From Alphaproteobacteria bacterium (lineage in GTDB: Bacteria; Pseudomonadota; Alphaproteobacteria; UBA7887), in NCBI GenBank assembly GCA_030739735.1, contig JASLYQ010000001.1:159633-223632 (forward strand): a stretch of DNA of 64,000 nucleotides, given 5' to 3'. The position numbers and the translations under genes are program-made. A model generated the notes under the pieces. It was not told the origin of the DNA. It was given only the letters and a program-made list of their open reading frames with translations, and made no database searches. Below, in pieces: positions 4,667 through 61,378 of the stretch (position 1 is the stretch's first letter; each line of letters opens with the position of its first letter).

Positions 4667-5448
4667 GAACCAGGCTCCAAATCAGCCATGACGATGTGGC
4701 CGTTGATCAGGTACCAAAGAATGCCAAGATATTCGTGCAGGGCGGCACGGCTACCGGCCAGGCCTGCGGCACTGGGCAGATAGGGCGCTAGCACACCGAG
4801 TGGCTGTCGAGGTGATGCGTGCGGGGCCGGCGCATGGGCACTCACCGTGAGCCCCACATGGCGCAGGTTCGCCGCCATGCGCGCAACATGAACGGGCGAG
4901 GTGACGAGCACGATGTGCGTGCCGCCGAGACGCTCGGCGATGGTACGCGCTGCCGCTGCCGTCTCGGCGCTATTGCGCGCGCCAGATTCGAGCAGAACTG
5001 TCGGGTCATCAGGCCGGTCGGAACCGATCATGCCAAGTTGGCGAGCGACGCTGACAGCCTCCGTTTCCGCCTCGCCGAGTGGGCTGCCGCCGATCAGCAC
5101 CAGGGGCAGGCTGGTGCGCTCGGCCAGCGCCTGGCCGGCCACTGCGCGGCGGATGCTGGCCGACGACGGCCACCAGCCACCTTGCGAATCGGCGAAAATA
5201 CCGGCCGTCGGCACCACGATGGCCACGGCATCGCCTGGCGTTGCGACATCAAAGGACGGCGCCGCCTCGCCGAGCTGGGTCTCGAGCCAAGTCGCGACTA
5301 GTGGCACGCTGAGGCCGAGAAAGGCGAGCGTCGCACCTCCAATCAGCACCAGGCTCCAGCCGCGGTGCAACCACAGAACAAGGCCCAATAGCAGCATTGC
5401 CAGAATCGGCATAGGCAGGGTGAGCAGGGTCTCAGTCACCTCTCGCAT
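4663..5448 (-). CDS. DUF218 (ElyC/YdcF/SanA-family) membrane-anchored protein
   Basis: The six-frame ORF runs to 5865, but the credible start is the Met at 5448 (MREVTETLLTLPMPILAMLLLGLVLW, an N-terminal TM helix). The DUF218 core is present (LVLIGGSPLGEAETEAVSVARQLG…LLESGARNSAETAAAART…VLVTSPVHVARM). Confidence 0.7.
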   Translation of the reverse strand: MREVTETLLTLPMPILAMLLLGLVLWLHRGWSLVLIGGATLAFLGLSVPLVATWLETQLGEAAPSFDVATPGDAVAIVVPTAGIFADSQGGWWPSSASIRRAVAGQALAERTSLPLVLIGGSPLGEAETEAVSVARQLGMIGSDRPDDPTVLLESGARNSAETAAAARTIAERLGGTHIVLVTSPVHVARMAANLRHVGLTVSAHAPAPHASPRQPLGVLAPYLPSAAGLAGSRAALHEYLGILWYLINGHIVMADLEPGS

Positions 5449-5550
5449 TTCGAGCTTTTTCTCCCTCGGCGCCGCGTTGCAAGCTGCGGCCCGCTCCCAT
5501 ATGGTACAAGGGTCCTGACCACTCCCTGGTTCGCCCACACACTGCCAAGT

Positions 5551-7029
5551 ATGACTCAGCCGAGTGAAAATGCCGAGCCCAGCGGCAAACGCGCGAGCCT
5601 TAGCGCGCGCAAGCGGAAGGCGCTCGCCCTGGCCGAGGCGGTGGCCAGCGAGCGCACCGGTTGGATAGCCCGCAATCGGTATTTCTACGACGACCACTAC
5701 CGCTATCTGCGCTTCCTCGTGCCGGAAAGCTCGCACGTGCTCGACCTCAGCTGCGGTATTGGTGATTGCTTGGCGGCGCTGGCGCCGGAGCGCGGCGTCG
5801 GGTTCGACCTCAGCCCGGCCATGATCGAAGTAGCGCGCAAAGAGAACCCGCAGTTCGAGTATCATGTCGGCGACATCGAGTGCACTGCAGCCATCGCCGA
5901 CCTCGAAGGCCCGTTCGACGCCATTATCTTGTCAGACACCATTGGCAACCTCGAAGACATTGAGATCACCATTGAGGCCCTGCACGCGTTATGTGCCCCC
6001 GACACACGACTGATTCTCTGCTATTACTCGCGCGCTTGGCAGCCGCTACTGCGTCTGACCGAAAAGCTTGGCGAAAAGCAACAACAATTACCGCAGAATT
6101 GGCTCAGCACCGAAGATATCAGCGCCCTGTTGCAGCTTGCTGATTTCGAGGTGATCAAGCGCGAATGGCGGCAATTGCTGCCCAAGCGCTGGCTCGGTTT
6201 GGGTTATCTGATCAACCGTACTTTCGGCACGCTGCCTGTGCTGCGGCGCTTCTCACTGCGAAACTATATCGTCGCCCGCCCGCTTCCCAAGCGCACCATG
6301 CCTGCAGAGCTGCCCTCGGCGACCGTGCTCATCCCCTGCCGTAACGAGCGCGCCAATATTGCCGCCGCCATCAAGCGCATGCCACACTTCGCGCCGGAGC
6401 AGGAGATCCTCTACGTCGAAGGGCACTCCAGTGACGGCACCTGGGAGGAGATCCAGCGTGTCATCGAGACTTATCCTGACTGGACCATCCGCGCTGTGCA
6501 GCAGGACGGTAAGGGCAAGGGCGATGCCGTGCGCAAGGGATTCGACGTGGCCGCGGGTGAGGTGCTAATGATCCTCGATGCTGACCTTACCGTACCACCC
6601 GAGACGCTACCCAAGTTTTACCGCGCGCTGGTCGCCGGCAAGGGCGAATTTGTTAACGGCACGCGGCTCGTCTATCCGCTCGAGAAAGAGGCCATGCGGC
6701 GGCTCAACTTGATCGCTAACCGCACCTTCTCGCTGCTCTTCTCATGGCTGCTCAACCAACGCCTGACCGACACCCTGTGCGGCACCAAGGTGTTGACCAA
6801 AGCCCATTATCGCAAGATCGCCGCCGGGCGCGCCTATTTTGGCGAGTTCGATCCGTTCGGTGATTTTGATCTCCTCTTTGGCGCCGCACGCCTGAACCTA
6901 AAGCTGGTAGAGATTCCCATCCGCTATCAGGCGCGAACCTATGGCGAGACCCAGATCTCGCGCTTCGCTGACGGCTGGCTGCTGCTGCGCATGGTCATCT
7001 TCGCCTGGCGCAAACTGAAAGCGCTTTGA
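5551..7029 (+). CDS. bifunctional class I SAM-dependent methyltransferase / family-2 glycosyltransferase (polyprenyl-phosphate sugar synthase-like) fusion protein
   Basis: 492 aa. The N-terminal approx 240 aa carry SAM-MTase motif I (VLDLSCGIGDCLAAL). The C-terminal approx 240 aa are GT2/DPM1-like (TVLIPCRNERANI…, DAD motif in MILDADLTVPP, GTKVL). Confidence 0.8.
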   Translation: MTQPSENAEPSGKRASLSARKRKALALAEAVASERTGWIARNRYFYDDHYRYLRFLVPESSHVLDLSCGIGDCLAALAPERGVGFDLSPAMIEVARKENPQFEYHVGDIECTAAIADLEGPFDAIILSDTIGNLEDIEITIEALHALCAPDTRLILCYYSRAWQPLLRLTEKLGEKQQQLPQNWLSTEDISALLQLADFEVIKREWRQLLPKRWLGLGYLINRTFGTLPVLRRFSLRNYIVARPLPKRTMPAELPSATVLIPCRNERANIAAAIKRMPHFAPEQEILYVEGHSSDGTWEEIQRVIETYPDWTIRAVQQDGKGKGDAVRKGFDVAAGEVLMILDADLTVPPETLPKFYRALVAGKGEFVNGTRLVYPLEKEAMRRLNLIANRTFSLLFSWLLNQRLTDTLCGTKVLTKAHYRKIAAGRAYFGEFDPFGDFDLLFGAARLNLKLVEIPIRYQARTYGETQISRFADGWLLLRMVIFAWRKLKAL

Positions 7030-8018
7030 GCGCCCTGTTAGCGGGGCTCGTTGCTGCCGCGCTGGCCTGGGCCACGACCGGGGCGCTGCGAAAGCTGCTC
7101 ACGGCCAAAGAGATCCTCGATCACCCCAATGCGCGCTCGAGCCACGCGCACCCTATACCGCGCGGCGGTGGCATCGCCGTGATGGCGGTAATTTTGTTCG
7201 GCTGGCTGGCTCTCGGCCTCGCCGAGATCACGCCCTTGCGCCTGATTTGGCCGCTGCTCGGGCTGAGCTTCGGCTTGGCGCTGGTCTCCTGGGCCGACGA
7301 TTTGCGCGGGCTCTCGCCGCTACTGCGCTTTACGGCCCAGATCGCGGCCGTTTCCATTGCACTCTCGACCGTGCCACTCGGTCCACATTTCCCCGGACCC
7401 TTGCCGCTTTGGCTGGCGATCGGCAGCGCCGCACTGGCCTGGCTCTGGTTCGTCAATTTGTTCAATTTCATGGACGGTATCGACACCATCGCTGGTGTCG
7501 AGACTGTGACGATCGCAGGCGGAACCGCGGTAGTCGCAGCCGCCCTCGGCCTGCTCGACGGCAGCTCCTGGCTAGCCGCAGTCGTTGCCGGTGCGGCGCT
7601 CGGCTTCTTGGTCTGGAACCGGCCGCCGGCGCGCATCTTCCTCGGCGATGTCGGCAGCGTGCCACTCGGCTTTCTGCTCGCCTGGCTGCTCCTGTCGCTG
7701 GCCGCCCATGGTGCCTGGGCAGCAGCCTTGATTCTACCCGCCTATTTCCTTACAGATGCCACACTAACCTTGCTACGCCGCGCTTTGCGTGGCGAAAAAC
7801 CATGGCATGCGCATCGCGAGCATTTCTATCAGCAGGCGGTGCAGAAAGGTGCCGGCCACGGCCGCGTTAGCGCCAGTGTGGCGGTGGCTAATCTGGCGCT
7901 ATTCGCCTGCGCGTTGGCCAGCCTGCACGGCCTCAGCGCCGCTATCGCAGCGCTTGCCGCATCGCTAGTGATCGTGCTGGTTTTGTTGTGGTACCTTCGC
8001 CGCGGTGCCACCTGGTAG
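7026..8018 (+). CDS. WecA/MraY-family polyprenyl-phosphate N-acetylhexosamine-1-phosphate transferase (GT4/PNPT)
   Basis: 330-aa polytopic membrane protein with the diagnostic NLFNFMDGIDTIAG motif and the PNARSSHAHPIPRGGG loop. TTG start overlaps the upstream TGA (TTGA). Confidence 0.8.
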   Translation: MSALLAGLVAAALAWATTGALRKLLTAKEILDHPNARSSHAHPIPRGGGIAVMAVILFGWLALGLAEITPLRLIWPLLGLSFGLALVSWADDLRGLSPLLRFTAQIAAVSIALSTVPLGPHFPGPLPLWLAIGSAALAWLWFVNLFNFMDGIDTIAGVETVTIAGGTAVVAAALGLLDGSSWLAAVVAGAALGFLVWNRPPARIFLGDVGSVPLGFLLAWLLLSLAAHGAWAAALILPAYFLTDATLTLLRRALRGEKPWHAHREHFYQQAVQKGAGHGRVSASVAVANLALFACALASLHGLSAAIAALAASLVIVLVLLWYLRRGATW

Positions 8019-22392: not shown

Positions 22393-22782
22393 GGCGTTGC
22401 ACGAGACTGGCTGTTTTTCTCATCTTCGGCCAATACAAGTCTTTGACTATTAAACAAAAATCTGTACCTAGCTTATTTCGTAATTCCCGGTGCCACACGT
22501 TCGGTGACCAGGAGATAGACTCCGGCGAACAGAGAATTCACTGACTGGCACCTAGCCCCTCGTCCGGCAAATGAAGGGGCACGCGGAGAAACGGAGGATT
22601 CGCGTTTGACGGATTTGATGAGGGATGCCAGTCAACGGCGGTACCGATCAGACGCAATACCTTCGCGCTGCCACGAGGGAGGGCGCCGGAAGACGCCGAA
22701 TGTGATCGCCGGAATCGCAAATGGTACTCGCCCTTGCAAAGCGCCCGCGGCCCTGCCCACAATGTGCCACGGGAGGGCGATT

Positions 22783-23091
22783 ATGCGTAGTCATCATGAT
22801 ATGGGCGGTGAGCCGGCCGGGCCAGTCGAGATCACCGAGGACGACTACGACGTCTGGGAGAAGCGCATCGACGCGCTGCTTTCCTTGCTCATCCAGGAAG
22901 AGAAGATCATGCGCGTCGACGAGCTGCGCCGCGGCATCGAGGCACTGGCGCCAAATGCCTATGCGTCTTTGAGCTATTACGAGCGCTGGATTGCCTCCAT
23001 CGCCGCTATTCTCGTCGAAAAAGACGTGCTGGGTCAGGACGAGGTCGACGCGCGCGTGGCTGTAGTGGCGGCGCGGGAGGGCGAAGCATGA
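22783..23091 (+). CDS. nitrile hydratase-like beta subunit, N-terminal half encoded as a separate polypeptide (ScnB/ToyK/L-like)
   Basis: 102 aa from the ATG at 22783, preceded by a GGGAGGG RBS (the six-frame ORF extends upstream to 22606). MRSHHDMGGEP…WEKRIDAL…YYERWIASIA aligns with the NHase beta N-domain (YDVGG…WEK…YYWHWI). The stop overlaps the next start (ATGA). Confidence 0.75.
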   Translation: MRSHHDMGGEPAGPVEITEDDYDVWEKRIDALLSLLIQEEKIMRVDELRRGIEALAPNAYASLSYYERWIASIAAILVEKDVLGQDEVDARVAVVAAREGEA

Positions 23092-23387
23092 GTCGCTTTG
23101 CCGTCAGCGAGCGCGTACAGGTCGCCTTCCACGACCCGCCCGATACCCCGCGCAAGCCGCATCTGCGCACGCCCTGGTACGTGCGTGGCAAAAGCGGTGA
23201 GATCGAGCGCATCTGCGGCGAATTCCGCAATCCCGAAGGCCTGGCCTATGGTGAGGACGGCCTGCCCAAGCAGACACTGTATCGCGTACGGTTCTCCCAA
23301 TCCCATCTCTGGCCAGATTATGCGGGCCCGGCTCACGACTGCGTCGAGGTCGAGATCTACGAGCATTGGTTGGAGCGGACGTCATGA
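23088..23387 (+). CDS. nitrile hydratase-like beta subunit, C-terminal half as a separate polypeptide (ScnA/ToyL/K-like)
   Basis: 99 aa. WYVRGKSGEIERI…LYRVRFSQSHLW…DCVEVEIYEHWLE aligns with the NHase beta C-domain (YVRGKTGTV…LYTVRF…ELW). ATGA overlaps on both sides. Confidence 0.75.
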   Translation: MSRFAVSERVQVAFHDPPDTPRKPHLRTPWYVRGKSGEIERICGEFRNPEGLAYGEDGLPKQTLYRVRFSQSHLWPDYAGPAHDCVEVEIYEHWLERTS

Positions 23388-24007
23388 GCGACGAAGTCAG
23401 GCACCGTCACGGTGTCCACGATCCTCATTACCGCCACCTCGCGATCGCGGTGCACGAACTGCTTGTCGAGAAAGGCGTGCTGAGTGAGGATCGAATTGAC
23501 CGCCAGATCGTGCGCATGGATGCACGTAGCCCGGCCGATGGTGCTCGCATGGTGGCCCGTGCCTGGACCGACCAGGCGTATCGCGCCCGCATGCTCGCTG
23601 ACGGTAGCGCCGCGGCCGAGGAAATCGGTCTCGTCGTCGACGGTACCCTGTTGGTGACAGTCGAAAATACGGACGCGGTGCACAATCTTTTCGTCTGCAC
23701 ACTTTGCTCCTGCTATCCGCGCTCGATTCTCGGCTTACCGCCGACCTGGTACAAGGCGCCGGAATACCGCAGACGGGTGGTGCGTGAGCCGCGCAAGGTG
23801 CTGGCCGAGTTCGGCGTCAGCGTGGCGGATGACGTCGAGCTGCGGGTGCACGATTCCACCGCCGATATGCGCTATATTGTACTGCCACGCCGACCCGACG
23901 GCACCGAGGGCTGGAGTGAGGACGCGCTTGCCAAGCTTGTGACCCGGGACAGCATGATCGGCGTTGGTCTGCCTTTGTCGCCGGAGACCGCACAAGCGGC
24001 AGAGTAG
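23384..24007 (+). CDS. nitrile hydratase-like alpha subunit, cobalt type (VCTLCSCY metal-binding motif)
   Basis: 207 aa from the ATG overlapping the upstream stop. Matches NHase alpha: AWTDQAYRARMLADG, NLFVCTLCSCYP…LGLPPTWYK, EYRRRVVREPRKVL, LVTRDSMIGV. The Thr and Tyr in the Cys cluster are the Co-type signature. Confidence 0.85.
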   Translation: MSDEVRHRHGVHDPHYRHLAIAVHELLVEKGVLSEDRIDRQIVRMDARSPADGARMVARAWTDQAYRARMLADGSAAAEEIGLVVDGTLLVTVENTDAVHNLFVCTLCSCYPRSILGLPPTWYKAPEYRRRVVREPRKVLAEFGVSVADDVELRVHDSTADMRYIVLPRRPDGTEGWSEDALAKLVTRDSMIGVGLPLSPETAQAAE

Positions 24008-47946: not shown

Positions 47947-49719
47947 TCAGTTGAAGTGTAGCGCTGCCGGGGGTAGGTGGTCGGCGTCAAGGCAGCACCA
48001 ATCGGCGACTTCAATGCCAAGGTCGGCGAACAGTGGACGCAGAATGGCAACGCGGCGAAAGGGGGCATTGCCGAGGGCGTCGCTGTCACCGGCGCGGCTG
48101 CGCGCGGCAAGCCCCTCTATCGCGGCCTTGAGCGTGGCGAAGTCGTCGGCCATGGCGACAGTCGCGGCGCCCTCGCCAGTGATGTTCCAGGACAGACTGA
48201 CGGAAAGCCAGGCATCGCCCGCGGCGGAGCGCGCGCCAAGGCCACTCACAGTGTCGCGCAGGGCAAAGGTCGCCCGCCAGTTTTCGCCGTCGCGGCGCAA
48301 ATTTCTGTCCTCGACGGCCAGGCCGGCAGGCGCCGCGGAATCGGAGCGCAGCCGCGCAACGCTGCCACTGCCATCGCCGCGCAAACGCCCGCGCAGCACC
48401 AGGCTACCGTCAGCAAAAGGCTCGCAAGTGAAGCCGAACTCGTCGCCGTCGGCGCGCACCGCGCACGGTGTCACCACCTCGCGGACCACTGTGGCGCCGT
48501 CGCGCAGGCGCGCATCGAGGCGCTGGATATCCACCAGGGCCATGAAGTTACCCAGCCCGGCAATGGTCTGGCTCACCCAGAAGGGCTCGACAGACGGCAT
48601 GCCGGCAAAGGACGCCGGCACTCCCCAAACGCTCTCTGGCCGCCGCTCATAGAGCGGCTCGTAGGTATCGTCGAATTGCAGCAGAGCGGGCGTGACCAGC
48701 GCCCTGAGCTCAGCGAGATCCATCTCGCCGTCCACGCGGCCAGTGCCGTAGCCGGCTTCTGCAAATGGGTCGTAGTCCGCGAGATCTGCGCTAGCGAGGG
48801 CGGCCCCTGCAGGGAAGCGTGCCTGCCAGCCCGCCACGACAGAGGCGGCGAAACGGTCGCGCGCGCCGTCGCCCGCCTCGGCAAGCTGGTAACCGCTGGT
48901 TAGACGGTAACGCAGCGCCGCCACCAGACCGTCGCGCCGGCACCCCACCGCATCCTCCGAGGCCTCGCACGCCTGTTGCCAAGCCGCCTGATAGGCGACG
49001 AAATAATTGGCGCGATTTGTCGACTCGTCAAAGGATTCGGGAATGTCGAATGGCACCGTGGCATCGATACCGTAGAAACGCTCGCTGGTATGGCGCAGCA
49101 ACGCCGCCACCTTAATGTTCGTATTGCTCTCGGCCCAGGGGCGGTCGGCATAGATCAGCGCATGGTTATGGTGGCAGGCGAGGCAGAGCCCGCGGTCAAC
49201 ATAGCCCACCGTGGGGTTACCGCCTTCACGGTAATCGCTGATGACCTGATAATCGAAGCGCCCGGCGGCCTCATTGTAGCTGATCGCCTCGACCGAGTTG
49301 GTGCGCGGCTGATAGCCGAGATAGAGCCTGTCCTTCATCATCAGACCCGATTCCCCCGCGGTGGGCGCCGGCTCTGTATCGACGGCACCGACCGCCCGCG
49401 GGTAGCGGAAGAAGTCCGGCTCAGCCTCGTGGCGGTGCAGAGAGCGGCCGATCGGGTGCAGTACCCGCTTTATGGGCTCCCGGAATCCGGGTCCAAGCCG
49501 CGCGGCGATGCGCTCGATTAACGCCTCAAAGGGATAGGGTGCGACGATCTGCCAATCGCCATCGACCTCCTCGGCCAGTACGAAGTCGAGCAGCGAGCGC
49601 CCGACCGGCGGCAGGTCCGGTCCGCGATTAGCTTCCGAGGTTAGCGCTTCGGGCTCGGCCAGTACCGGCGCCACAAAGGTTAGTACCAAGAGTATTGGGA
49701 AAAGTTGTCGCATCACCAC
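47947..49719 (-). CDS. exported hypothetical protein with a single CXXCH haem-c-type motif
   Basis: 590 aa. N-terminal signal peptide MVMRQLFPILLVLTFVAPVLAEP. CLACHH at about residue 186. No other family recognised. Confidence 0.6.
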   Translation of the reverse strand: MVMRQLFPILLVLTFVAPVLAEPEALTSEANRGPDLPPVGRSLLDFVLAEEVDGDWQIVAPYPFEALIERIAARLGPGFREPIKRVLHPIGRSLHRHEAEPDFFRYPRAVGAVDTEPAPTAGESGLMMKDRLYLGYQPRTNSVEAISYNEAAGRFDYQVISDYREGGNPTVGYVDRGLCLACHHNHALIYADRPWAESNTNIKVAALLRHTSERFYGIDATVPFDIPESFDESTNRANYFVAYQAAWQQACEASEDAVGCRRDGLVAALRYRLTSGYQLAEAGDGARDRFAASVVAGWQARFPAGAALASADLADYDPFAEAGYGTGRVDGEMDLAELRALVTPALLQFDDTYEPLYERRPESVWGVPASFAGMPSVEPFWVSQTIAGLGNFMALVDIQRLDARLRDGATVVREVVTPCAVRADGDEFGFTCEPFADGSLVLRGRLRGDGSGSVARLRSDSAAPAGLAVEDRNLRRDGENWRATFALRDTVSGLGARSAAGDAWLSVSLSWNITGEGAATVAMADDFATLKAAIEGLAARSRAGDSDALGNAPFRRVAILRPLFADLGIEVADWCCLDADHLPPAALHFN

Positions 49720-52780: not shown

Positions 52781-53893
52781 CTATGCGCCGTTGCGTGCTT
52801 CCTTCAGGGCTGCGGGTAGAGCTTCTTCAAGCAGGTCGAGGTCGCCGGGCAGGCCGGCGCTGATACGGATACACCGATTGAGAGGAGCGACGCCGGGCAT
52901 GCGAACGAATACATCGCGCCTGGCAAGTGCTTCGAGAACGCGTATCGCTAGGTTGCCGTCACCCGCGCAATCGACGGCCACGAAATTGGTCGCAGTCGGC
53001 AGGCTATCGAGCCCATTCGCGGCAGCGATGGAGGCAATGCGCTCGCACGCAGCAGAGACCTTGATAGTCACCTCGGCCAGATGAGCCGCATCGCCGAGCG
53101 ATGCCAGCGCCGCTACCTGGGCCATTCGGTTAACGCCAAAATGATTGCGCACCTTATCAAAAGCACCAACCAAACCAGCTTCGCCAAGCGCATAGCCGAC
53201 ACGCGCACCGGCCAGGCCGTGCGCCTTTGAAAAAGTGCGAAAGCGCAGCACCTTGCGGCAAGAGATATCGAGTGGCGGAACCGTGCCGGCCGGTGCGAAG
53301 TCCGAGTAGGCTTCGTCGAGCACCAGCACACAACCATCGGGTACAAGCGCGATCATGTCCTCGATCTTCGCCGCATCGGACCAACTGCCCATGGGATTAT
53401 CCGGGTTAGCGAGATAGATCAGGCGTGCCTTCTCGCGTACCGCCAGGTCGAGCAACGCCTCCGGATCCTCACGGTCCTCACGATAGTGAACCGTGGCTAG
53501 CCTGCCGCCAAAGCCAACAACATGAAAATTAAAGGTGGGATAGGCGCCGAGTGAGGTTGCCACGGTCACGCCAGGCTCGACGAACAGCCGCACCATATAG
53601 CCGAACAGCGCATCGATGCCCTCGCCCACGACGACATTCTCGGGCGCCACGCTGTGATGCGCGGCGAGCGCCACCTTCAGATCGTGGTTCTCGGGATCAC
53701 CATATTGCCACAGCGCGGTCGCTTCGGCCTGCATTGCCGCGACAGCCTTCGGCGAACAGCCGAAAACACTTTCATTAGCACCGATGCGGGCACAAAACGG
53801 CTTGCCACGCCTGCGCTCCAGCGCCTCTGGGCCGACAAAGGGCACGCTTTGCGGCAGGCTCCTGGCAAGCGGCGTGAAATCGTAATCTGTCAC
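52781..53893 (-). CDS. PLP-dependent aminotransferase, class I/II (HisC-like)
   Basis: 370 aa. LDEAYSDFA, PLP-Lys region RTFSKAHGLAGARVGY. Confidence 0.8.
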   Translation of the reverse strand: MTDYDFTPLARSLPQSVPFVGPEALERRRGKPFCARIGANESVFGCSPKAVAAMQAEATALWQYGDPENHDLKVALAAHHSVAPENVVVGEGIDALFGYMVRLFVEPGVTVATSLGAYPTFNFHVVGFGGRLATVHYREDREDPEALLDLAVREKARLIYLANPDNPMGSWSDAAKIEDMIALVPDGCVLVLDEAYSDFAPAGTVPPLDISCRKVLRFRTFSKAHGLAGARVGYALGEAGLVGAFDKVRNHFGVNRMAQVAALASLGDAAHLAEVTIKVSAACERIASIAAANGLDSLPTATNFVAVDCAGDGNLAIRVLEALARRDVFVRMPGVAPLNRCIRISAGLPGDLDLLEEALPAALKEARNGA

Positions 53894-53907
53894 GCCAGCC
53901 TCCGTTT

Positions 53908-54450
53908 TCAGTTAGGCTCTGGCCAGTATAGCAGGAAGCCGTCACGGTTCGGCATCTTCACACCAGGCAGGCTATCGGCATCCATGACCTGGCCGTCCTT
54001 GATGATGCCGTTCAAGCTCAACAGGTATGCCGTGACCGCATAGACATCGTCATTGCTGAGCGACATCGGCCGATCATAGGGCATGGCACGGCGCACGTAG
54101 TCAAAAATAGTGGTGGCATAGGGCCAGTAGCTGGCTATGGTTTTCACCGGCTTGTCGCCGGCTAGAGAATCGATGCCACCGGCAAGTGCATCAGCAAATT
54201 TCTCGCCGCCCCTGGCGCCCCCGCCATGGCAGCGCCTGCAGTGCTGATGGTAGACGTGAGCGCCGCGTTCGGCATCACCCCTACCGGGCGGCAAGGTGGC
54301 ACCGTCGGGCGCGATGCTGATATCCCATTTAGCGACCTCTTCCGCCGATACCGGCTCGCCCAGCTCTGGACCGGGCTCAGCGAGAACGGGACTGGCAACA
54401 AGCAGGACCACGGCCAAGGTCGAAAGCGTGCAACGATCAAATATAGACAT
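53908..54450 (-). CDS. monohaem cytochrome c, sulfite dehydrogenase partner subunit (SorB/SoxD-like)
   Basis: Start at MSIFDRCTLSTLAVVLLVASPVLA (signal peptide), overlapping the sorA-like stop by 14 nt. Single CRRCH haem site. Confidence 0.7.
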   Translation of the reverse strand: MSIFDRCTLSTLAVVLLVASPVLAEPGPELGEPVSAEEVAKWDISIAPDGATLPPGRGDAERGAHVYHQHCRRCHGGGARGGEKFADALAGGIDSLAGDKPVKTIASYWPYATTIFDYVRRAMPYDRPMSLSNDDVYAVTAYLLSLNGIIKDGQVMDADSLPGVKMPNRDGFLLYWPEPN

Positions 54451-55735
54451 TGCTGACCTCCCCGTTGCTTGCAATGCCCCAGGTTTGGATGGCGTTGCAG
54501 TGGTAGAGATGGCCTGCCGCATACTGCTCGGACCACACTTCGCGTCGTAGCTGGGTGTTACCTTTCTCGTCGGTCGCGCGGCTTTGCACGACAGCTGGCG
54601 CGCCGTCCCAACTCCAGGGCAGGCGGAAACGCGTCAGCGCCATCGGCTGCACCGGCCCGTCCAGCGCCGCCTCCGCCCAGCTCTTGCCGCCGTCGGCCGA
54701 GACCTCGACGCGGGCGATTCGGCCGTGGCCTGACCAAGCGAGGCCCGAGATCTGATAGAGCCCCGCGCCGCGCATCGTCAGACCCGTTGCCGGGCGTGTG
54801 ATGGTTGATTTCACATCCATGCGGAAAGTGAACTGGCGCGCCATGCCGTCGGGCATCAGGTCGGAATATTTCGAGGTCTCGTCCTTTGTGTGAGTTGGTC
54901 CCTCGGTGACCTTGATGCGGCGCAGCCACTTGACCGACATATTACCTTCGTAGCCCGGCAACACGAGGCGCATGGGGTAGCCGTTCTCGGGGCGTAGGCG
55001 CTCGCCGTTCTGATACAAAGCCACGATGGCGTCGTCGAGTGCCTTTTCCATGGGAATGCTACGGCTCATGGCGGCGGAATCAGCCCCCTCGGCAAGAATC
55101 CACTTGCCGCGCGGATCCAATCCAGCTTCATCGAGTAGGATCGAGAGCGGGATACCCGTCCACTCGGCACCGGAGATGAGACCGTGGATCATACCTACCG
55201 GCACCTGCATGGGCTCGGAGAACAGGTTGCTGTTGAAGAAACTATTGCCAGCGCACTCGATAAATAGAAGTCGGCTAGCCATCGGATAGCGCAGCAGCGC
55301 CTCTATGTCGAACTTAAGCGGCTGCACCACCAGACCATGGATCAAAAACTCATGCCTCTCCGAATCGATGATGGGTCGGCCGTTGTGGCTGCGCTCGAAA
55401 TGCAGACCGTTGGGTGTGATGGTGCCTTCAAGGTTCTGCAGTGGCGTCATGCCGACACCAGCGCCGGGCGCCAGATCGCCATAGGGCTGAAGCACGGTGC
55501 GAGCTGTCTCCCGTTCGGCGCGAGCAGGATCACCGTAGGGCCGAAACGTGATGCCCGGCACGGTCATCCAGCTCGGCGCTTCATCGCCGATGGATTCCGC
55601 GGCTACAGCCGCACCGGGCAGGGCCGCCGCAGCCACCGCACTGCCAGCGAGAAAGGCGCGCCGGTGCAGCAGACCACCGCTCGCGACTGGCTCGCCGAGC
55701 GCCTCGGCGGCGGGCACAGTGTTCTTCTTTGACAT
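54437..55735 (-). CDS. Tat-exported molybdopterin oxidoreductase of the sulfite-oxidase family (SorA/SoxC-like sulfite dehydrogenase catalytic subunit)
   Basis: 432 aa. Twin-arginine signal HRRAFLAGSAVAAAALPGAAVA. Moco domain (ECAGNS…). C-terminal Mo-co dimerisation domain. Strong RBS GAAGGAGGAG. Confidence 0.8.
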   Translation of the reverse strand: MSKKNTVPAAEALGEPVASGGLLHRRAFLAGSAVAAAALPGAAVAAESIGDEAPSWMTVPGITFRPYGDPARAERETARTVLQPYGDLAPGAGVGMTPLQNLEGTITPNGLHFERSHNGRPIIDSERHEFLIHGLVVQPLKFDIEALLRYPMASRLLFIECAGNSFFNSNLFSEPMQVPVGMIHGLISGAEWTGIPLSILLDEAGLDPRGKWILAEGADSAAMSRSIPMEKALDDAIVALYQNGERLRPENGYPMRLVLPGYEGNMSVKWLRRIKVTEGPTHTKDETSKYSDLMPDGMARQFTFRMDVKSTITRPATGLTMRGAGLYQISGLAWSGHGRIARVEVSADGGKSWAEAALDGPVQPMALTRFRLPWSWDGAPAVVQSRATDEKGNTQLRREVWSEQYAAGHLYHCNAIQTWGIASNGEVSNVYI

Positions 55736-55749
55736 CGGTTCTCCTCCTT

Positions 55750-57837
55750 CTATTTTGCTGCCACCGGCACGGCTTCCTCGCGCGGCCCAATACCGGAACT
55801 ACCCGACAGGCGCTCGCGGCGCTCCCTCCTGGCCACCAAGGGCGGACAGACCTGATCGTCCTGATAGGCCACCTGGCAGGCCAGACAGTGATAACACTCA
55901 TTGAAATTTATGCTGCCATCGTTGCCGATCGCCTGCACCGGGCAAAGCGGCTGACAAGTGTTGCAGCTACTGCCGCATTCGGGCCGACGCTTTAACCAGA
56001 GCAGCATGCGCCAGCGCCCGAGGATGGCAAGGCTGCCGCCCAGCGGACAGAGATAGCGGCAAAAGGCGCGCTCAACGAAGAGCCCTACACCGAGTATAGC
56101 GAGCGTAAACAGCACATAGGGCCAGGCGCGCACGAAGCCGAACAGGATCGCCGTGTCGAAGGGCTCTATCTCGACAGCGCGTATGACCGGGGTCCGATCG
56201 ATGAAGACCAGCGCGACTAGTGCTATCGCGACAACATATTTGAGCGCCCACAGCCGCTCGTTGAGCGCAGCCGGCAGTTGCCGCTGGCGCAGCCCAAGCC
56301 ACCGCGCAGCTTTGTTGAGCAACTCCTGCAAAGCGCCAAAGGGGCAAAGCCAGCCGCAGAATATGCCGCGTCCGAGCAGCAGCAGGGTAAGCCCCGCGAA
56401 GCCTAGCACGATCAGTGTCAGGGGATCGAGCAGCATTGCCTCCAACCCACCGCCTTCGAAGGGCGCCCGGGCAATCGTGAAGAGATGGCTGATCGACAGT
56501 TGCGCGCCTGCATACCAGCCGATCCAGCCCAGCGAAAAGACAAGAAAGACAGCGCGTAGCCAGCGCATACATTGGGCGTGTCGGACGAGCCGGTTTTGGG
56601 CCAATAGCACAGCCGAAAGGGTTGCCAGCGCCAGCAGCAGCACCGCGATCTTGGCTTCCTGGTCCTTCCACACCGAGAGCCAAAGGGCCGGCACCTCAGC
56701 GGCACGATTATCGACAGCGGCAACGAGCCGCGGAATAGGCTCGACCACCAGCTCAGCCGGCGGCGCGTAGTCAAGCCCGAACCGGGCTTCTCCGCCGAAG
56801 GCGATCTCCAGCAACCACGGCCGGCTACCATCGAAGCCGCTCGTCGCCGGAATTCGCAACAGAACTAGCTGCTCCATGGCCGGCGCACCACTCACGGCGA
56901 CACCGTTCAGGGCAACCGACTCAAACTCGTTGAGTGATAGCGTCAGCCCGCCTTGACGCAGGCTAAGCGCGCTTGACACCGGCGCTTCGGCAAGGGTCGC
57001 AACGCCCCGCCGCAGACTGGCCCGTCCGGCACTTGCGACGAGCAGAAGTGAATCACCTTCCGCGAGCCCGGCCGCGGCATGAGCTTCGGCGCCAAGCAGA
57101 TTGCGCCCGATCAGTGCCGGAGTCGCGAGCGCCGTAACGAGGTCAGCAAAAAGCATGTCGGCTGGACCGCTGCTAAGCTTTGCGGCATGGGCGGCGACAT
57201 CACCATTGCTGAGCGTCAGCCGGCGGACCGCACCAATGGCGCGCAGCCCTGCCCAATCGAGGGGGCGGAAGCTCACGAGATCGAGGCGGCGGGCCTCGCG
57301 GGCGCCGGGACCGAGCAGGTCACGCGAGACCGCGACCATGCGCCCGGCCCGGTAGATACCGTCGAGCAGCGCCAACACGCTGATATCAGCACGCCCGCCA
57401 TAGTCTTCGGGTGCGGCAGGCCGTGGCGCGAGCACATCAAGGCCGACCAGCCCGGTAAGCGCCGCTTCCAGCGCCGCGCGCCCACCGAGATTACGCAGTA
57501 GTGGCTCGTCCTCAGCAATCAGCACTGCGCCGGTGACGCGGGCGTGCATATCGAGGCCGAGCAGAATGTCAAAACGACTGCCGCCGTAGCCACGCGGCTT
57601 GGCCAAGTCGCCGACCGAAAAGACATAGCCCACAATGTCACCGTCGCGAAGAACCTCGGCAGCAGGCGGGCGCCCATCCGTCGGTTGAGCGCGATCTGCG
57701 CCGGGAAAGGCTTGCGCCAGGCGGTCCGGCGTCAAGCGGTCGGCCAGGGGGTCGGGTTTTGCGGCCGGGGATTCCGTTGCCATCCCAAGCCCGCAGAAAA
57801 GCCCCAAGATGACGAGCCGTCCGATCGATTTTCTCAC
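55750..57837 (-). CDS. NosR/NirI-family membrane polyferredoxin, paralog 1 (FMN-attachment motif degenerate)
   Basis: 695 aa, GTG start with signal-like N-terminus. Periplasmic N-domain, 5-6 TM helices with CGWLCPFGALQE and FCRYLCPLGG, C-terminal 2x[4Fe-4S] ferredoxin motifs (CGSSCNTCQPLCP, CYHCLACQ). The SGATxSS flavin site is replaced by ADISVLA. Confidence 0.8.
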   Translation of the reverse strand: MRKSIGRLVILGLFCGLGMATESPAAKPDPLADRLTPDRLAQAFPGADRAQPTDGRPPAAEVLRDGDIVGYVFSVGDLAKPRGYGGSRFDILLGLDMHARVTGAVLIAEDEPLLRNLGGRAALEAALTGLVGLDVLAPRPAAPEDYGGRADISVLALLDGIYRAGRMVAVSRDLLGPGAREARRLDLVSFRPLDWAGLRAIGAVRRLTLSNGDVAAHAAKLSSGPADMLFADLVTALATPALIGRNLLGAEAHAAAGLAEGDSLLLVASAGRASLRRGVATLAEAPVSSALSLRQGGLTLSLNEFESVALNGVAVSGAPAMEQLVLLRIPATSGFDGSRPWLLEIAFGGEARFGLDYAPPAELVVEPIPRLVAAVDNRAAEVPALWLSVWKDQEAKIAVLLLALATLSAVLLAQNRLVRHAQCMRWLRAVFLVFSLGWIGWYAGAQLSISHLFTIARAPFEGGGLEAMLLDPLTLIVLGFAGLTLLLLGRGIFCGWLCPFGALQELLNKAARWLGLRQRQLPAALNERLWALKYVVAIALVALVFIDRTPVIRAVEIEPFDTAILFGFVRAWPYVLFTLAILGVGLFVERAFCRYLCPLGGSLAILGRWRMLLWLKRRPECGSSCNTCQPLCPVQAIGNDGSINFNECYHCLACQVAYQDDQVCPPLVARRERRERLSGSSGIGPREEAVPVAAK

Positions 57838-57922
57838 AAGGATCCCCTACGTACCTGTCGCCCGCAATGGCAGTGGCCGTTGCATAGCAAAGATGGGTGG
57901 GCACGCAAAGCGCCGTTTTCCC

Positions 57923-59959
57923 TTATGTCGCCGCCGCCCGCGCAGCGCGCTTGCGCTGCTGGATCAGCGGCGGACAGCGCCCCTCATCGAAATACTCGAC
58001 CTGGCACTCCAGGCATTGGAAACATTCGTTCATATCGATGCTGCCATCGCCGCGGATCGCATCGACTGGACAAATCTGGCGGCAAACCGCGCAAGGGCTG
58101 CCGCATTGCGGGCGTTGCCTGAGCCAGCGCATCACGTGCCAACGCCCGAGAAGACTCAGCGCGCCGCCGAGCGGGCAGAGAAAGCGGCAGAAGAAGCGCT
58201 CAATGAAGAGACCGAGAACAAGGAGGATCCCAGCATAAAGCACGTAGGGCCAGTGACGCGCGAAGCCGACCACGATGGCGGTCTTGAAGGGTTCCACCTC
58301 CGCGGCCACCTGGGCGGCGTCGAGCGACCATATGGCGAGTCCGAAAATTACCAATGTCACCAGATATTTGGCAGTCACCAGACGTTCACCCAAGCTCTCC
58401 GGAATCTTGACACGCGGCAGGCGCAAACGGCGCGCGACGGCGCCAGCGAACTCCTGCAAGGCGCCGAAGGGGCAAAGCCAGCCACAGAAGACGCCACGAC
58501 CCCATAGCAGCAGCGTGACCAGCACATAGAGCGACAGCAGAAAGATTAACGGGTCGAGCAGTACCAGCGCCGGGTCGAGGCCGGAGACCATGATCCGCGC
58601 ATAGGTGACGATGTTGAGGATCGTCAGCTGTGCATCGACGATCCAGCCAAGCCATACCAGAACCACCGCCAGAAAGCCGAGGCGCAGCATGCGGTAAAGA
58701 CGGCGACCACGGACCAGGCGATCCTGCCACAGCAACATCAGCGTAAGCGTGGTGAGCAAACCTACAAGAGCCACGATATCGCCGGCCCGGGCCACCCAGA
58801 CCCTTTGCCAGTCATTGAGCAGGCTTCCGCGCAGCAGACCGAACAAGACATAGGTGGGCTCTTTGTAGCCAGCCTCCTCCAATGCAAAGTCGCTGCCGGT
58901 CACGAAAAGCGCGGGCAGCGTGTAGGGTAGACTGTGGGTTTCGTCCCCGATATCGAACTCGAACGCCCAGGGCTTGAACACGTCAAAGCCGTCGCGGGCG
59001 CCGAGGCGGAACATAACTCGCTCGCTGAAGCACGGCGCGCCGTCACCAATGATGGAGGGCTTACCGAGCTTGTTATCGCGGCTCAGCGGCAGGGTTTTGC
59101 CGTCCTGGACAATGCGCACATTGGGATAGGGTTCACCACCGCGCGGCCTTTTGCGGAACAGCGCCGGATTGCCGGTACCGGCGAGGACGAGCAGGTGCTC
59201 GTCAGTGCCGAGCTTCGAGACATGGAAGGTATGCCAGCTACCGCCAAAAAAATTGCGGCCGATGCCGGGCGGTGTGGTAATCGCGGCATAGACCTCCAGG
59301 GTCTCGCCAGCCTCGCTCGGCACGGCGAGTGTCGTCACCGCGCCCAGCGCAAGCAGGGTTTGCCAGTCGCGTGGCTCGTAGCTCCTCATATCAACGCTGA
59401 CGCCCGTTTCCAGCCCGTCGATCAAACCGTATTCCGTAGCAATCTTGCGCGCTGAAGACAGCACCGCCGAGCGCATCAGCTTGCTGCTCACCGTGGCACC
59501 CGAGATGGCATCGGTGGCCTCGCGTACATTGCGCAGCGATTGATCCACGGGAAAGCCGGAGAGCTGAAGCAAAAATCCATCCAGACGTGAGAGCGGGATG
59601 GCGTTGTGGCTGATGATCGGCTCGTGGTGCTCGATCACATGCACGCCGCGCAGGCGGCCATCCAGATCAATGCCGACCAGTAGATCGAAAGCGAGGCCGG
59701 TGAAACCACCGATGGGATCGATGTCGTAGGTCGAGAGCACGTAACCCGCCAGGGCATCGTCGATGAGCACTTCCGCCACCGCGGGCCGGCCGCTGATCTC
59801 GCCGACCTCGTCGGCCTCGGGAAAGGCCTGGTCGAGGGCGCGGACCGACAGGCGACGCTCCAGCGGATCCTCCTTGTCAATTGCCTGAGCATCGCCAGTG
59901 AGCACACAAAGCAACGCGGCAACAACAAGAAACAGGCGGTACGTCGGAAAGGCAACCAT
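57923..59959 (-). CDS. NosR/NirI-family membrane FMN-binding polyferredoxin, paralog 2 (intact FMN_bind motif)
   Basis: Start at MVAFPTYRLFLVVAALLCVLTGDAQA (the track ORF runs to 60016). FMN_bind signature DAISGATVSS. TM domain with CGWLCPFGALQE/FCRFLCPLGG. C-terminal CGSPCAVCRQICP and CFQCLECQ ferredoxin motifs. Confidence 0.8.
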   Translation of the reverse strand: MVAFPTYRLFLVVAALLCVLTGDAQAIDKEDPLERRLSVRALDQAFPEADEVGEISGRPAVAEVLIDDALAGYVLSTYDIDPIGGFTGLAFDLLVGIDLDGRLRGVHVIEHHEPIISHNAIPLSRLDGFLLQLSGFPVDQSLRNVREATDAISGATVSSKLMRSAVLSSARKIATEYGLIDGLETGVSVDMRSYEPRDWQTLLALGAVTTLAVPSEAGETLEVYAAITTPPGIGRNFFGGSWHTFHVSKLGTDEHLLVLAGTGNPALFRKRPRGGEPYPNVRIVQDGKTLPLSRDNKLGKPSIIGDGAPCFSERVMFRLGARDGFDVFKPWAFEFDIGDETHSLPYTLPALFVTGSDFALEEAGYKEPTYVLFGLLRGSLLNDWQRVWVARAGDIVALVGLLTTLTLMLLWQDRLVRGRRLYRMLRLGFLAVVLVWLGWIVDAQLTILNIVTYARIMVSGLDPALVLLDPLIFLLSLYVLVTLLLWGRGVFCGWLCPFGALQEFAGAVARRLRLPRVKIPESLGERLVTAKYLVTLVIFGLAIWSLDAAQVAAEVEPFKTAIVVGFARHWPYVLYAGILLVLGLFIERFFCRFLCPLGGALSLLGRWHVMRWLRQRPQCGSPCAVCRQICPVDAIRGDGSIDMNECFQCLECQVEYFDEGRCPPLIQQRKRAARAAAT

Positions 59960-60169
59960 GGGGCCCGGGACGGATACGGCTTTGCTGTGCCCTTGTCGAG
60001 AGTTAAGCCGGTGCAAGGATCGGCTGAGCGAGAATCCACAGGCTCAGGACCGAGTATGCGACCATCAGCAGCAGCAGTGGCAATTGCGCGAGATTGCGCG
60101 CGCCCCGAGGTGGGAAGAACGCCGGGTTGTCACGCCTAGAACCTAGGACCCGGCCAACCGATATCGTCG

Positions 60170-60379
60170 TCAGTCAATCACGCGCAGATTATCCGCTGCC
60201 ATCCGGCCGCGATTATCGGCAACCATGTCGAACTCGATCTTCTGTCCTTCGGACAGGGTAGACAGGCCCGCCCGCTCGACGCTCGAAATATGGACAAAAG
60301 CATCCTTGTCACCTGTCTCGGGTGTAATAAATCCGAACCCCTTTACGGAATCGAACCATTTCACGGTTCCCGTCGTCAT
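60170..60379 (-). CDS. cold-shock protein (CspA family)
   Basis: Start at [18 protein letters not shown] (RNP1-like KGFGFI, RNP2-like FVHIS). RBS GAGGAGG. 69 aa. The upstream part of the track ORF is rejected. Confidence 0.9.
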
Positions 60380-60559
60380 ACGTACCTCCTCGCACCAGTG
60401 TTTACCCCATCCCTTCGGACAGGGTCTCTCTATAGAGCTTCGACTTGCTATCCCGGAGGAGGCAGTCACGAAAACTCACACACATAACCATAGCAGTGGC
60501 GAGCCCTGCGTCACAAGCCAATGCGTGTAACACTTTCGTGACTTGCTGGAAAATGCCGC

Positions 60560-61378
60560 TCAACCGCGGCCGCGGAACAATTGCCGTGGCGCGGGACTGC
60601 TCCGCGAGTAGCCATCTGCGCAAAACGCGCCGCCCTGATAGCGCCTGGCGACGGGATTCATATCGTCCTCGCTGCCTTCGACGATCGAGCCATAGGCGTC
60701 AGCGCTGTCTTCGGACGAAAAACCGATCTGTTCCCGGGCCAGATCGGACCACCAGCGCCCGGTATTCTCGGATACACCCCAATAAACCGCATGGCCCAGA
60801 GTGTCGGCCGCGAGACAGCAGCGCACTAGTGCGGTCAGATCGGCAAAGCTCAGCCAGGTGTAAAGCTGGCGGCGGTCGACGGGCTCGGCAAAGCAGGAGC
60901 CGATCCGCAAGCAAGCGTTCTCCACCCCGTACTTATCCCAATAGGTGCGCCCAAGTAGCTCACTATAGGCCTTCGATAGACCATAATAGCTGTCGGGGCG
61001 GAGCTGGCAGTCCTCGGTCAGCGCCTCGTCGCGCTGGTGAAAGCCGATGGCGTGGTTGGAGCTTGCGAAGACCACACGCGCACCGTTACGCCGGGCGCCT
61101 TCGAAGATGTGATAAGTGCCGCGCAAGTTGGCCTCAAGGACTTCTTCGAAGCTCGCTTCCGTAGAAATAGCGCCGAAATGCACGATGGCATCGACACCTT
61201 CGCAGAGCGCCAGTACCGTGTCCTTGTCGGCGAGGTCCGCCAGCCGAAAAACCGCGCCATCCGGTATCTGGCGAGCGGTCACGATGTCCATGAGGCGTAA
61301 TTTGTGCTCATCAGCCAAGCCGGCGCTGAGTACACGCCCGAGATTGCCAGCGGCACCGGTCAGAAAAATGGTGGACAT
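60560..61378 (-). CDS. uronate dehydrogenase (Udh-like extended SDR)
   Basis: 272 aa. Near-collinear with Agrobacterium/Pseudomonas Udh from my recollection of those sequences: FLTGAAGNLGRV, VFASSNHAIGF, YGLSKAY, RIGSC, WGVSENTGRWW, RYQGGAF. Confidence 0.8.
   Translation of the reverse strand: MSTIFLTGAAGNLGRVLSAGLADEHKLRLMDIVTARQIPDGAVFRLADLADKDTVLALCEGVDAIVHFGAISTEASFEEVLEANLRGTYHIFEGARRNGARVVFASSNHAIGFHQRDEALTEDCQLRPDSYYGLSKAYSELLGRTYWDKYGVENACLRIGSCFAEPVDRRQLYTWLSFADLTALVRCCLAADTLGHAVYWGVSENTGRWWSDLAREQIGFSSEDSADAYGSIVEGSEDDMNPVARRYQGGAFCADGYSRSSPAPRQLFRGRG

Follow-up and report, generated by a model that had tools for sequence, protein, structure and literature searches.

A 64,000-nucleotide (nt) stretch of DNA from an Alphaproteobacteria bacterium of the UBA7887 lineage (contig JASLYQ010000001.1 of assembly GCA_030739735.1, positions 159,633 to 223,632 of the forward strand; hereafter, the window) encodes two adjacent NosR-like membrane proteins, of which one (paralog 2) has an intact site for covalent attachment of flavin mononucleotide (FMN) by ApbE, while the other (paralog 1) has lost it. 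The loss is shared by a narrow clade of paralog 1 relatives whose genes are, in all 11 loci considered, directly followed by a gene for a SoxC-like molybdoenzyme. Sequence, predicted structure and synteny, on which all functional statements made here rest, together suggest, with a probability that we put at roughly 0.55, that the flavin-less protein is a membrane subunit dedicated to a periplasmic SoxCD-type dehydrogenase, either as its redox partner or for docking. The two genes and the segments that distinguish their periplasmic domains are located as follows, in window coordinates:

57923-59959, minus strand: NosR-like paralog 2, flavin-site-bearing, 678 amino acids (aa) from the ATG at 59959
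57923-60016, minus strand: longest open reading frame (ORF) of paralog 2, 697 aa from a TTG
59492-59512, minus strand: ApbE flavinylation motif D-A-I-S-G-A-T in the translation of paralog 2, residues D150-T156, after the signal/anchor
55750-57837, minus strand: NosR-like paralog 1, flavin-site-less, 695 aa, GTG start
57379-57408, minus strand: degenerate flavinylation site E-D-Y-G-G-R-A-D-I-S of paralog 1, with the Asp151 codon at 57385-57387
57280-57342, minus strand: clade-specific conserved segment R-M-V-A-V-S-R-D-L-L-G-P-G-A-R-E-A-R-R-L-D of paralog 1, residues 166-186, after the helix downstream of the lost motif

The two proteins are joined by a single full-length BLASTP alignment (37% identity, 253/690; E = 1e-116). 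In paralog 2, an N-terminal signal/anchor precedes a periplasmic FMN_bind domain, which is followed by a membrane domain containing two CX3CP repeats and, at the C-terminus, by a cysteine motif of the 2x[4Fe-4S] type; paralog 1 has the same architecture, with all CX3CP and ferredoxin cysteines present and no Pfam match to FMN_bind. That family (PF04205) was matched in paralog 2 only, at 28 bits against a cut-off of 22, and paralog 1 gave no match to it at E<=1. The published ApbE motif is D-x-x-[S/T]-G-A-[S/T], with FMN attached to the last residue (PMC12052999), and the DAISGAT of paralog 2 conforms to it, its predicted FMN-bearing residue being Thr156 (678-aa numbering). G154, A155 and T156 are invariant among the 24 members of the paralog 2 clade, and in a search of PDB sequences the SGAT of paralog 2 falls opposite the TGAT of RnfG (7zc6_G, E = 5e-4). 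From its sequence, paralog 2 is a plausible, canonical candidate substrate of ApbE.

At the equivalent place, the translation of paralog 1 reads EDYGGRADISVLALLDGIYRAGR (sequence aligned to the flavin site, DYGGRADISVLALLDGIYRAGR). Asp151 stands opposite the flavinyl Thr in a MAFFT alignment of ~95 homologues (made with --retree 2) and also in a profile-profile alignment of the two clades by hhalign (probability 100, 675 columns including the periplasmic domain). The periplasmic part of paralog 1 contains no D-x-x-[ST]-G-A-[ST], and its sole TGA-type string, RVTGAV, terminates in Val. This string lies on a core beta-strand preceding the "EP" loop, where RnfG also reads VTG, and the position is variable within the flavin-less clade (TGAA, TGAV, SGVV and KGAI, with TGAT in P0008). 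Because an acidic residue replaces the flavin-bearing Thr, paralog 1 cannot be flavinylated at the homologous site, and because exchange of the FMN-linking Thr for Ala abolishes flavinylation in characterised ApbE targets (PMC12052999), it very probably lacks covalent flavinylation altogether. An earlier examination of the bare DNA (hereafter, the sequence-only reading) had proposed just this asymmetry, and it is borne out on both sides, by DAISGAT with its PF04205 match in paralog 2 and by EDYGGRAD, with Asp151 for Thr in both alignments, in paralog 1; of an alternative Thr-containing motif in paralog 1, which by the same reading would have refuted the asymmetry, nothing was found beyond the Val-ended and variable RVTGAV.

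The altered site is a property of a clade. A search of 5.8 billion clustered proteins yielded 24 homologues of paralog 1 at 45-99% identity, and the Thr is absent in 24/24, its place being taken by Asp/Glu (21/24), Asn (2/24) or Lys (1/24). After the replaced residue, the flavin-less clade has an invariant Ser and the consensus S-A-L-x-M-L-D-x-I-Y-R-A-G-R. The ~70 other NosR-like proteins in the same alignment, including all homologues of paralog 2, keep [S/T/A]-x-A-[T/S] with Thr/Ser at the site, as do all NosR-like ORFs recovered outside the flavin-less clade. When 1.84 billion representatives of 50% identity clusters were searched by HMMER with the flavin-less periplasmic domain, P0008 and P0022 scored 541 and 501 bits and the next match 228 bits; among the top 150 matches, Thr/Ser at the site is missing only in P0008, P0022 and one fragment. 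With just two high-scoring representatives and one fragment in a search of this size, the flavin-less clade is real but narrow. It is monophyletic in a neighbour-joining tree of 126 sequences, and in bootstrapped neighbour-joining trees of 93 thinned sequences its monophyly was recovered in 100/100 replicates, the superclade containing paralog 2 in 99/100 and the sister relationship of the two in 87/100.

A missing precomputed PF04205 label was considered as a sign of a flavin-less protein and rejected, given that P0057, P0059-P0062 and the flavin-bearing partner at locus L083 carry SGAT; because many unlabelled proteins do so, a missing label reflects a weak Pfam score and not loss of the site. 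Separately, NosR-like subfamilies with variant flavinylation motifs, namely D-G-V-T-K-A-T (Lys for Gly), D-A-I-S-S-A-T and N-I-I-S-G-V-T (Val for Ala), were encountered at loci L127-L148, L111-L122, and L103, L118 and L150.

Although its flavin site is gone, the N-terminal domain of paralog 1 is predicted to retain the FMN_bind fold. This question was decided from structure models instead of a PDB sequence search, in which the profile of the flavin-less clade gave a non-significant RnfG match alone (E = 0.13). AlphaFold models of the two periplasmic regions, with a mean predicted local distance difference test score of 80.5 for paralog 1 and 79.2 for paralog 2, have the same order of secondary-structure elements. 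In Foldseek searches of the PDB, the model of paralog 1 matched RnfG 7zc6_G (E 2.7e-3, TMt 0.51, root-mean-square deviation 4.6, 141 columns) nearly as did the model of paralog 2, used as a control (E 2.4e-4, TMt 0.53, root-mean-square deviation 4.5, 157 columns), and it matched two more RnfG chains at E<1e-3. A second periplasmic subdomain (residues ~190-385; window ~56680-57270 and ~58800-59390) is predicted to be a beta-sandwich in both paralogs, and that of paralog 1 has as its best PDB match the DUF4426 protein PA0388 (3uc2; E = 1.6e-4, TMt 0.39).

The distribution of conserved residues within this domain differs between the clades. Averaged over the columns of the periplasmic domain, conservation reaches 0.62 for the flavin-less clade and 0.59 for the flavin-bearing clade. 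In the latter, conservation peaks at the SGAT block (0.84) and then drops to 0.49-0.56, whereas in the former it is highest at the replaced site and directly behind it (0.76, 0.87 and 0.76 over residues 151-195). The two 15-residue blocks of the clade-specific segment (0.87 and 0.76) form the maximum of the domain, against 0.49-0.56 for the matching region of the flavin-bearing clade, and the clade consensus of the segment is VAVSRELRGPGEREGRRLD. A conservation peak that coincides with the replaced region implies a new constraint, which is read as changed function, not drift or decay.

Outside the flavin site, both proteins keep their cysteine motifs, and the features concerned include the following:

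56323-56355, minus strand: first CX3CP repeat of paralog 1 (GWLCPFGALQE), a 33-nt stretch in common with paralog 2
58451-58483, minus strand: first CX3CP repeat of paralog 2 (GWLCPFGALQE), a 33-nt stretch in common with paralog 1

Two stretches of Fer4_5 (PF12801, the CX3CP repeats) were matched in each paralog (E = 2.2e-15 and 2.8e-19), and the CX3CP cysteines are invariant in both clades. The C-terminal motifs CX3CX2CX3CP and CX2CX2CX9CP are likewise present and invariant in both clades, where Fer4 gave sub-threshold Pfam matches only. In the alignment of the flavin-less clade (A2), the invariant cysteines are C494, C498, C593, C597, C621, C625, C628, C632, C648, C651, C654 and C664. Precomputed annotation assigns the PF27538 "NosR" region to homologues, P0001 and P0049 (99-100% identical) among them, while local Pfam scanning gave no PF27538 match for either paralog. 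The 33-nt stretch is identical at 31/33 bases between the two genes, with 0 matches in 100 shuffles, and encodes the invariant GWLCPFGALQE.

In these respects, too, the sequence-only reading was accurate: it had stated that both paralogs keep the CxxxCP motifs and both ferredoxin cysteine clusters, which are indeed invariant in each clade, and that the genes share a recognisable stretch of DNA, of which there are two copies with none expected from shuffles. The evolutionary interpretation that it built on these observations stands in part. A tandem duplication agrees with two adjacent NosR/NapH-like paralogs from sister clades (87/100), and the sequences are consistent with one duplication followed by a single loss of the flavin site on one branch. 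The duplication is, however, old and not recent, because either paralog is 45-99% identical to its own orthologues in other organisms, whereas the pair itself is only 37% identical. Of the proposed subfunctionalisation into one flavinylated and one flavin-free member, the biochemical half holds, in that only one of the two proteins is a plausible substrate of ApbE, whereas the division of an old function between two partners does not fit a partner that is not adjacent in 4/10 loci. Genes of the flavin-bearing clade are moreover found on their own in unrelated surroundings, at odds with the distribution expected of a subfunctionalised pair: relatives of paralog 2 (47-56% identical) stand as lone genes at L084 (8001-10112), L085 (8001-10274) and L086 (8001-10277), flanked by hemerythrin genes at L084 and adjoining a cytochrome P460 gene at L086. 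The flavin-less N-domain also gained its most conserved segment exactly at and after the lost motif, which resembles a new function more than a division of old ones. This gain was overlooked in the sequence-only reading, as were the linkage to SoxCD-like genes and the dispensability of the flavin-bearing partner.

Downstream of the NosR-like pair, the window carries two genes related to soxC and soxD:

54437-55735, minus strand: SoxC-like molybdoenzyme, sulfite oxidase family, 432 aa, twin-arginine signal HRRAFL
53908-54450, minus strand: SoxD-like mono-haem cytochrome c (Pfam Cytochrom_C), probable start ATG at 54450
53908-54522, minus strand: longest ORF of the SoxD-like gene, 204 aa

The SoxC-like protein contains the Pfam domains Oxidored_molyb and Mo-co_dimer, and its gene starts 14 nt past the stop of paralog 1. 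Its closest solved relative is 2XTS_A, the SoxC of the SoxCD complex (E = 1.5e-104, residues 62-431), with SorA (2BLF_A) at 3e-29, and the SoxD-like protein matches 2XTS_B at E = 3e-37. NCBI gives the name "sulfite dehydrogenase" to a close homologue that clusters with P0099 (88% identical), and lists its neighbours as "4Fe-4S binding protein" and "FMN-binding protein". Pfam scanning of 44 window ORFs found neither nos genes, including nosZ, nor soxXYZAB; the latter were also absent from the gene tables of the loci looked up by exact protein, while the loci from a metagenome scan were screened for NosR-like and SoxC/D-like ORFs only. The locus is of the Sox type and not a nos locus.

To delineate the conserved gene neighbourhood, exact-protein look-ups were combined with a scan of metagenome contigs seeded with the flavin-less N-domain alignment, which gave 10 further loci, or 11 with the window (the window, the P0004 locus, L081, identical to L088, L082, L083, L087, L089, L090, L091, L120 and L154). 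In 11/11 loci a SoxC-like gene, 73-88% identical to that of the window, lies directly downstream of the flavin-less gene, and a SoxD-like gene then follows wherever the contig continues, the L083 and L091 contigs ending before it. A flavin-bearing partner lies directly upstream in six loci (the window, the P0004 locus, L081, L083, L089 and L154), and L120 has no readable upstream DNA. The partners in L083 and L089 belong to a branch of the flavin-bearing superclade other than that of paralog 2. Thus arranged, the constant association is between a flavin-less NosR-like protein and a particular SoxCD-like subclade, and the flavin-bearing paralog is a frequent but dispensable neighbour. In L154 (5782-10007), the flavin-bearing gene ends at 8004 and the flavin-less gene starts at 8001; this 4-nt overlap suggests translational coupling, and the corresponding gap in the window is 85 nt. 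A separate scan of genome contigs with the full-length alignment keyed on the generic motifs CGWLCPFG and CRYLCPLG and was unsuited to the synteny of the flavin-less clade: among the matches listed, the best loci were <=41% identical, mostly canonical NosR, and none had SoxC/D-like genes.

Within the window, the flavin-bearing NosR-like, flavin-less NosR-like, SoxC-like and SoxD-like genes, all on the minus strand, appear to form an operon-like unit. The sole basis for this is their spacing (in order, 85 nt, 14 nt and a 14-nt overlap between the soxC-like and soxD-like genes), along with a gene order conserved elsewhere; a promoter and terminator consensus scan of 53400-60700 gave no more sites than in shuffled sequence. 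The real start of paralog 2 is probably the ATG at 59959, giving the N-terminus MVAFPTYRLFLVVAALLCVLTGDAQA, because all close homologues are 678 aa long, and the ATG at 54450 is chosen for the SoxD-like gene because homologue models of 181-184 aa share the 14-nt overlap on the soxC-like gene. Upstream of the unit, ~150 nt (60016-60170) separate the flavin-bearing NosR-like gene from a cold-shock gene in the window, and the P0004 locus (JGI 3300072015), a 77-81% identical relative, has between these genes two further ones of 395 and 444 aa (coordinates 5216-7835; no Pfam match) that are absent from the window. Elsewhere in the window are a 590-aa ORF at 47947-49719 on the minus strand, with gene-like codon bias (GC content at third codon positions, 0.76), and a 205-aa ORF at 4901-5518 on the plus strand, both with no Pfam match at E<=1e-4, as well as genes at 22606-24007 on the plus strand for nitrile hydratase beta and alpha subunits, followed by GST and amidohydrolase genes, apparently unrelated to the NosR-like pair.

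By architecture, both paralogs are NosR/NirI (NapH-like) proteins: NosR of Pseudomonas/Stutzerimonas stutzeri and NirI of Paracoccus share with them the PF12801 repeats, the PF27538 region and the two-cluster ferredoxin motif, and canonical NosR homologues are 32-35% identical to the paralogs. The NosR/NirI flavinylation motif is also found in paralog 2, which agrees with these proteins in every sequence feature, while paralog 1 departs from them in its flavin site. That site is required for NosR function in nitrous oxide (N2O) respiration (PMC12052999), and paralog 1 does without it. NosR is linked to nosZ and nosDFYL, whereas the neighbour here is a SoxCD-like molybdo-haem enzyme; because nos linkage is absent, neither paralog is a NosR in the functional sense. 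Searches of the PDB and the literature found no solved NosR structure. In RnfG and NqrC, the former of which has the fold matched by the first periplasmic subdomain of both paralogs, the flavinyl Thr is conserved and the proteins are separate subunits of the Rnf/Nqr pumps, while paralog 1 has Asp at that position.

A wider frame is offered by NapH-like PF12801 proteins, described in the main text of Meheust et al. (2021, eLife, PMC8238504) as mostly having an N-terminal FMN-binding domain and as used modularly beside the periplasmic reductases or oxidases NosZ, PceA, NirS and ExaA (an alcohol oxidase). This pattern accommodates the window operon, with its PF12801 membrane protein, extracytosolic FMN-binding domain and periplasmic oxidoreductase. 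The same source reports 539 clusters in which a NapH-like protein without an FMN domain lies beside a separate FMN-binding protein (PMC8238504). Going by that account, paralog 1 differs in keeping a full-length, degenerate domain of the FMN_bind fold along with a clade-specific segment, and its clade differs in that the flavin-less protein can occur without an FMN-binding neighbour. The main text of that study makes no mention of sulfite or molybdopterin, its supplementary cluster tables lying outside the scope of this statement.

On the enzyme side, SoxCD of Paracoccus pantotrophus (2XTS) has the same domains, Tat signal and overlapping gene pair as the SoxC/D-like genes of the window. It differs in that the window cytochrome is mono-haem and no soxXYZAB, and hence no SoxYZ carrier, was found in the 44 window ORFs scanned or the look-up tables; the substrate of the SoxCD-like pair may be free sulfite or carrier-bound sulfur. 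SorAB of Starkeya novella (2BLF) likewise combines a periplasmic molybdoenzyme with a small cytochrome c of the same Pfam families and is far more distant (E = 3e-29). To our knowledge, SorAB is without NosR-like accessory genes. Full-text searches found no literature linking NosR-like proteins with SoxCD or sulfite dehydrogenases, only genome reports mentioning both separately.

In the favoured model, the flavin-less protein would be the dedicated membrane redox partner of a periplasmic SoxCD-type sulfite (or sulfane) dehydrogenase. Its former flavodomain would be re-used as a non-redox docking or scaffold domain, with residues 166-186 as a candidate interface, while the membrane CX3CP module and the cytoplasmic 2x[4Fe-4S] domain would go on serving as the electron path that joins the enzyme to the quinone pool or the cytoplasm. 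The flavinylated paralog, where present, may add an optional periplasmic FMN relay, probably as a hetero-oligomer with the flavin-less paralog. Electrons could flow either out of the dehydrogenase into the membrane or into the enzyme, where they would maintain its activity, a role proposed for NosR towards N2O reductase. As a speculation, the acidic residue (Asp/Glu) conserved where the Thr once stood may take the place of the FMN phosphate as a negative charge. The model draws on the interchangeability of NapH-like modules among NosZ, PceA, NirS and ExaA, as set out in the main text of PMC8238504. A more specific version is offered only tentatively: the flavin-less clade might be a NosR-type polyferredoxin whose pseudo-flavodomain docks the SoxCD-like enzyme, so that electrons pass between the SoxD haem and a membrane iron-sulfur or quinone site free of flavin, with Asp/Glu mimicking the FMN phosphate, which would make it an undescribed periplasmic sulfite:quinone (or sulfite:ferredoxin) oxidoreductase.

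Several observations weigh against this model. Passing electrons from a c-type haem on to FMN or iron-sulfur clusters is normally uphill, so that an acceptor role is thermodynamically uncertain; this favours either an acceptor site at quinone level within the membrane domain or a donor role like that of NosR, which keeps the enzyme active. The flavin-bearing partner is absent from the readable upstream DNA in 4/10 loci (L082, L087, L090 and L091), where no FMN-binding gene adjoins the flavin-less gene. In these, either the flavin-less protein works without a periplasmic cofactor, by no known route, or its partner is encoded elsewhere; most contexts being metagenomic contigs, "absent" here means "not adjacent". 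SoxCD-like pairs 68-69% identical to that of the window occur without any NosR-like gene at L152 and L153, the former (Ga0315336_1000001, 2958947-2976251) on the same 4.79-Mb contig as the NosR-linked copy L081, so that such enzymes do not in general need the module; at both loci a creatininase-family gene comes next, with TauD or DctP genes nearby. No apbE (PF02424) was found among the 44 window ORFs scanned with Pfam or in the neighbour tables of related loci, and flavinylation of paralog 2 would therefore depend on a gene outside the window. Finally, all trees are distance-based, by neighbour-joining only.

Among the other explanations weighed, one holds that the NosR-like proteins conduct no electrons for catalysis and have a regulatory or maintenance role instead, sensing redox state and governing whether the SoxCD-like enzyme is expressed or activated, with the flavin-less N-domain acting as a sensor or binding a ligand. 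In source annotations they appear as "NosR/NirI family transcriptional regulator", NosR was first described in this way for nosZ, and the nos cluster has been described as maintaining a fully functional N2O reductase (PMC12052999); the new conserved periplasmic segment could bind a ligand, and the module looks accessory, since SoxCD-like pairs elsewhere occur without it. The annotation is, however, historical, neither protein has a DNA-binding domain in Pfam scans, and the invariance of 12/12 cluster-binding cysteines in the flavin-less clade favours working iron-sulfur chemistry, so that a regulatory role is regarded as unlikely, though by no means negligible. A further step down in probability is the proposal that paralog 1 binds flavin or a related cofactor non-covalently in the old pocket and stays a periplasmic redox domain. 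The predicted retention of the FMN_bind fold would agree with it, as would conservation of Ser153 and of the "E-P" loop ahead of the motif (E111 invariant, P112 near-invariant). Yet there is no Pfam FMN_bind match at E<=1, the entire D-x-x-S-G-A-T stretch is replaced, with an acidic side chain where a hydroxyl carries the FMN phosphate, and removal of the Thr abolishes flavinylation in characterised ApbE targets (PMC12052999), which together make this quite improbable.

Two remaining explanations carry very little weight. Adjacent genes of the same architecture with a 33-nt stretch in common could point to a tandem duplication of recent date, with paralog 1 in decay, its N-domain drifting and the asymmetry without function. 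A pair just 37% identical speaks otherwise, as do orthologues of paralog 1 at 45-78% identity that keep the same replaced site and a periplasmic conservation (0.62) that matches that of the flavin-bearing clade (0.59) and is maximal at the replaced region; the common 33-mer merely encodes the invariant GWLCPFGALQE, and decay is hardly credible. For flavinylation of paralog 1 at another, non-canonical site, nothing was found in support, the nearest approach being the "TGAT" that P0008 has on the strand where paralog 1 reads RVTGAV; the string varies across the clade and corresponds to the core beta-strand reading VTG in RnfG, and with no D-x-x-[ST]-G-A-[ST] in the periplasmic part such a site would be very surprising.

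What appears to be new, judged from the sequences, is a conserved pseudo-flavodomain in a NosR-like protein linked to a sulfur-oxidising molybdoenzyme, a pairing not found described. Because the clade comprises some three 50%-identity clusters out of 1.84 billion representatives, its ecological weight is probably modest. In several periplasmic respiratory systems, no link is less well understood than the NosR-type proteins, in both their transmembrane electron route and the role of their flavin, and a natural, conserved flavin-less version beside a flavin-bearing sister provides a built-in comparison for the role of the flavodomain. The strict linkage to SoxCD-type enzymes extends the modular use of NapH/NosR-like proteins, already seen for N2O, organohalide, nitrite and alcohol, to sulfur oxidation, and suggests that some "stand-alone SoxCD/sulfite dehydrogenases" of marine and soil Alphaproteobacteria may be wired to the membrane differently from SorAB or SoeABC.

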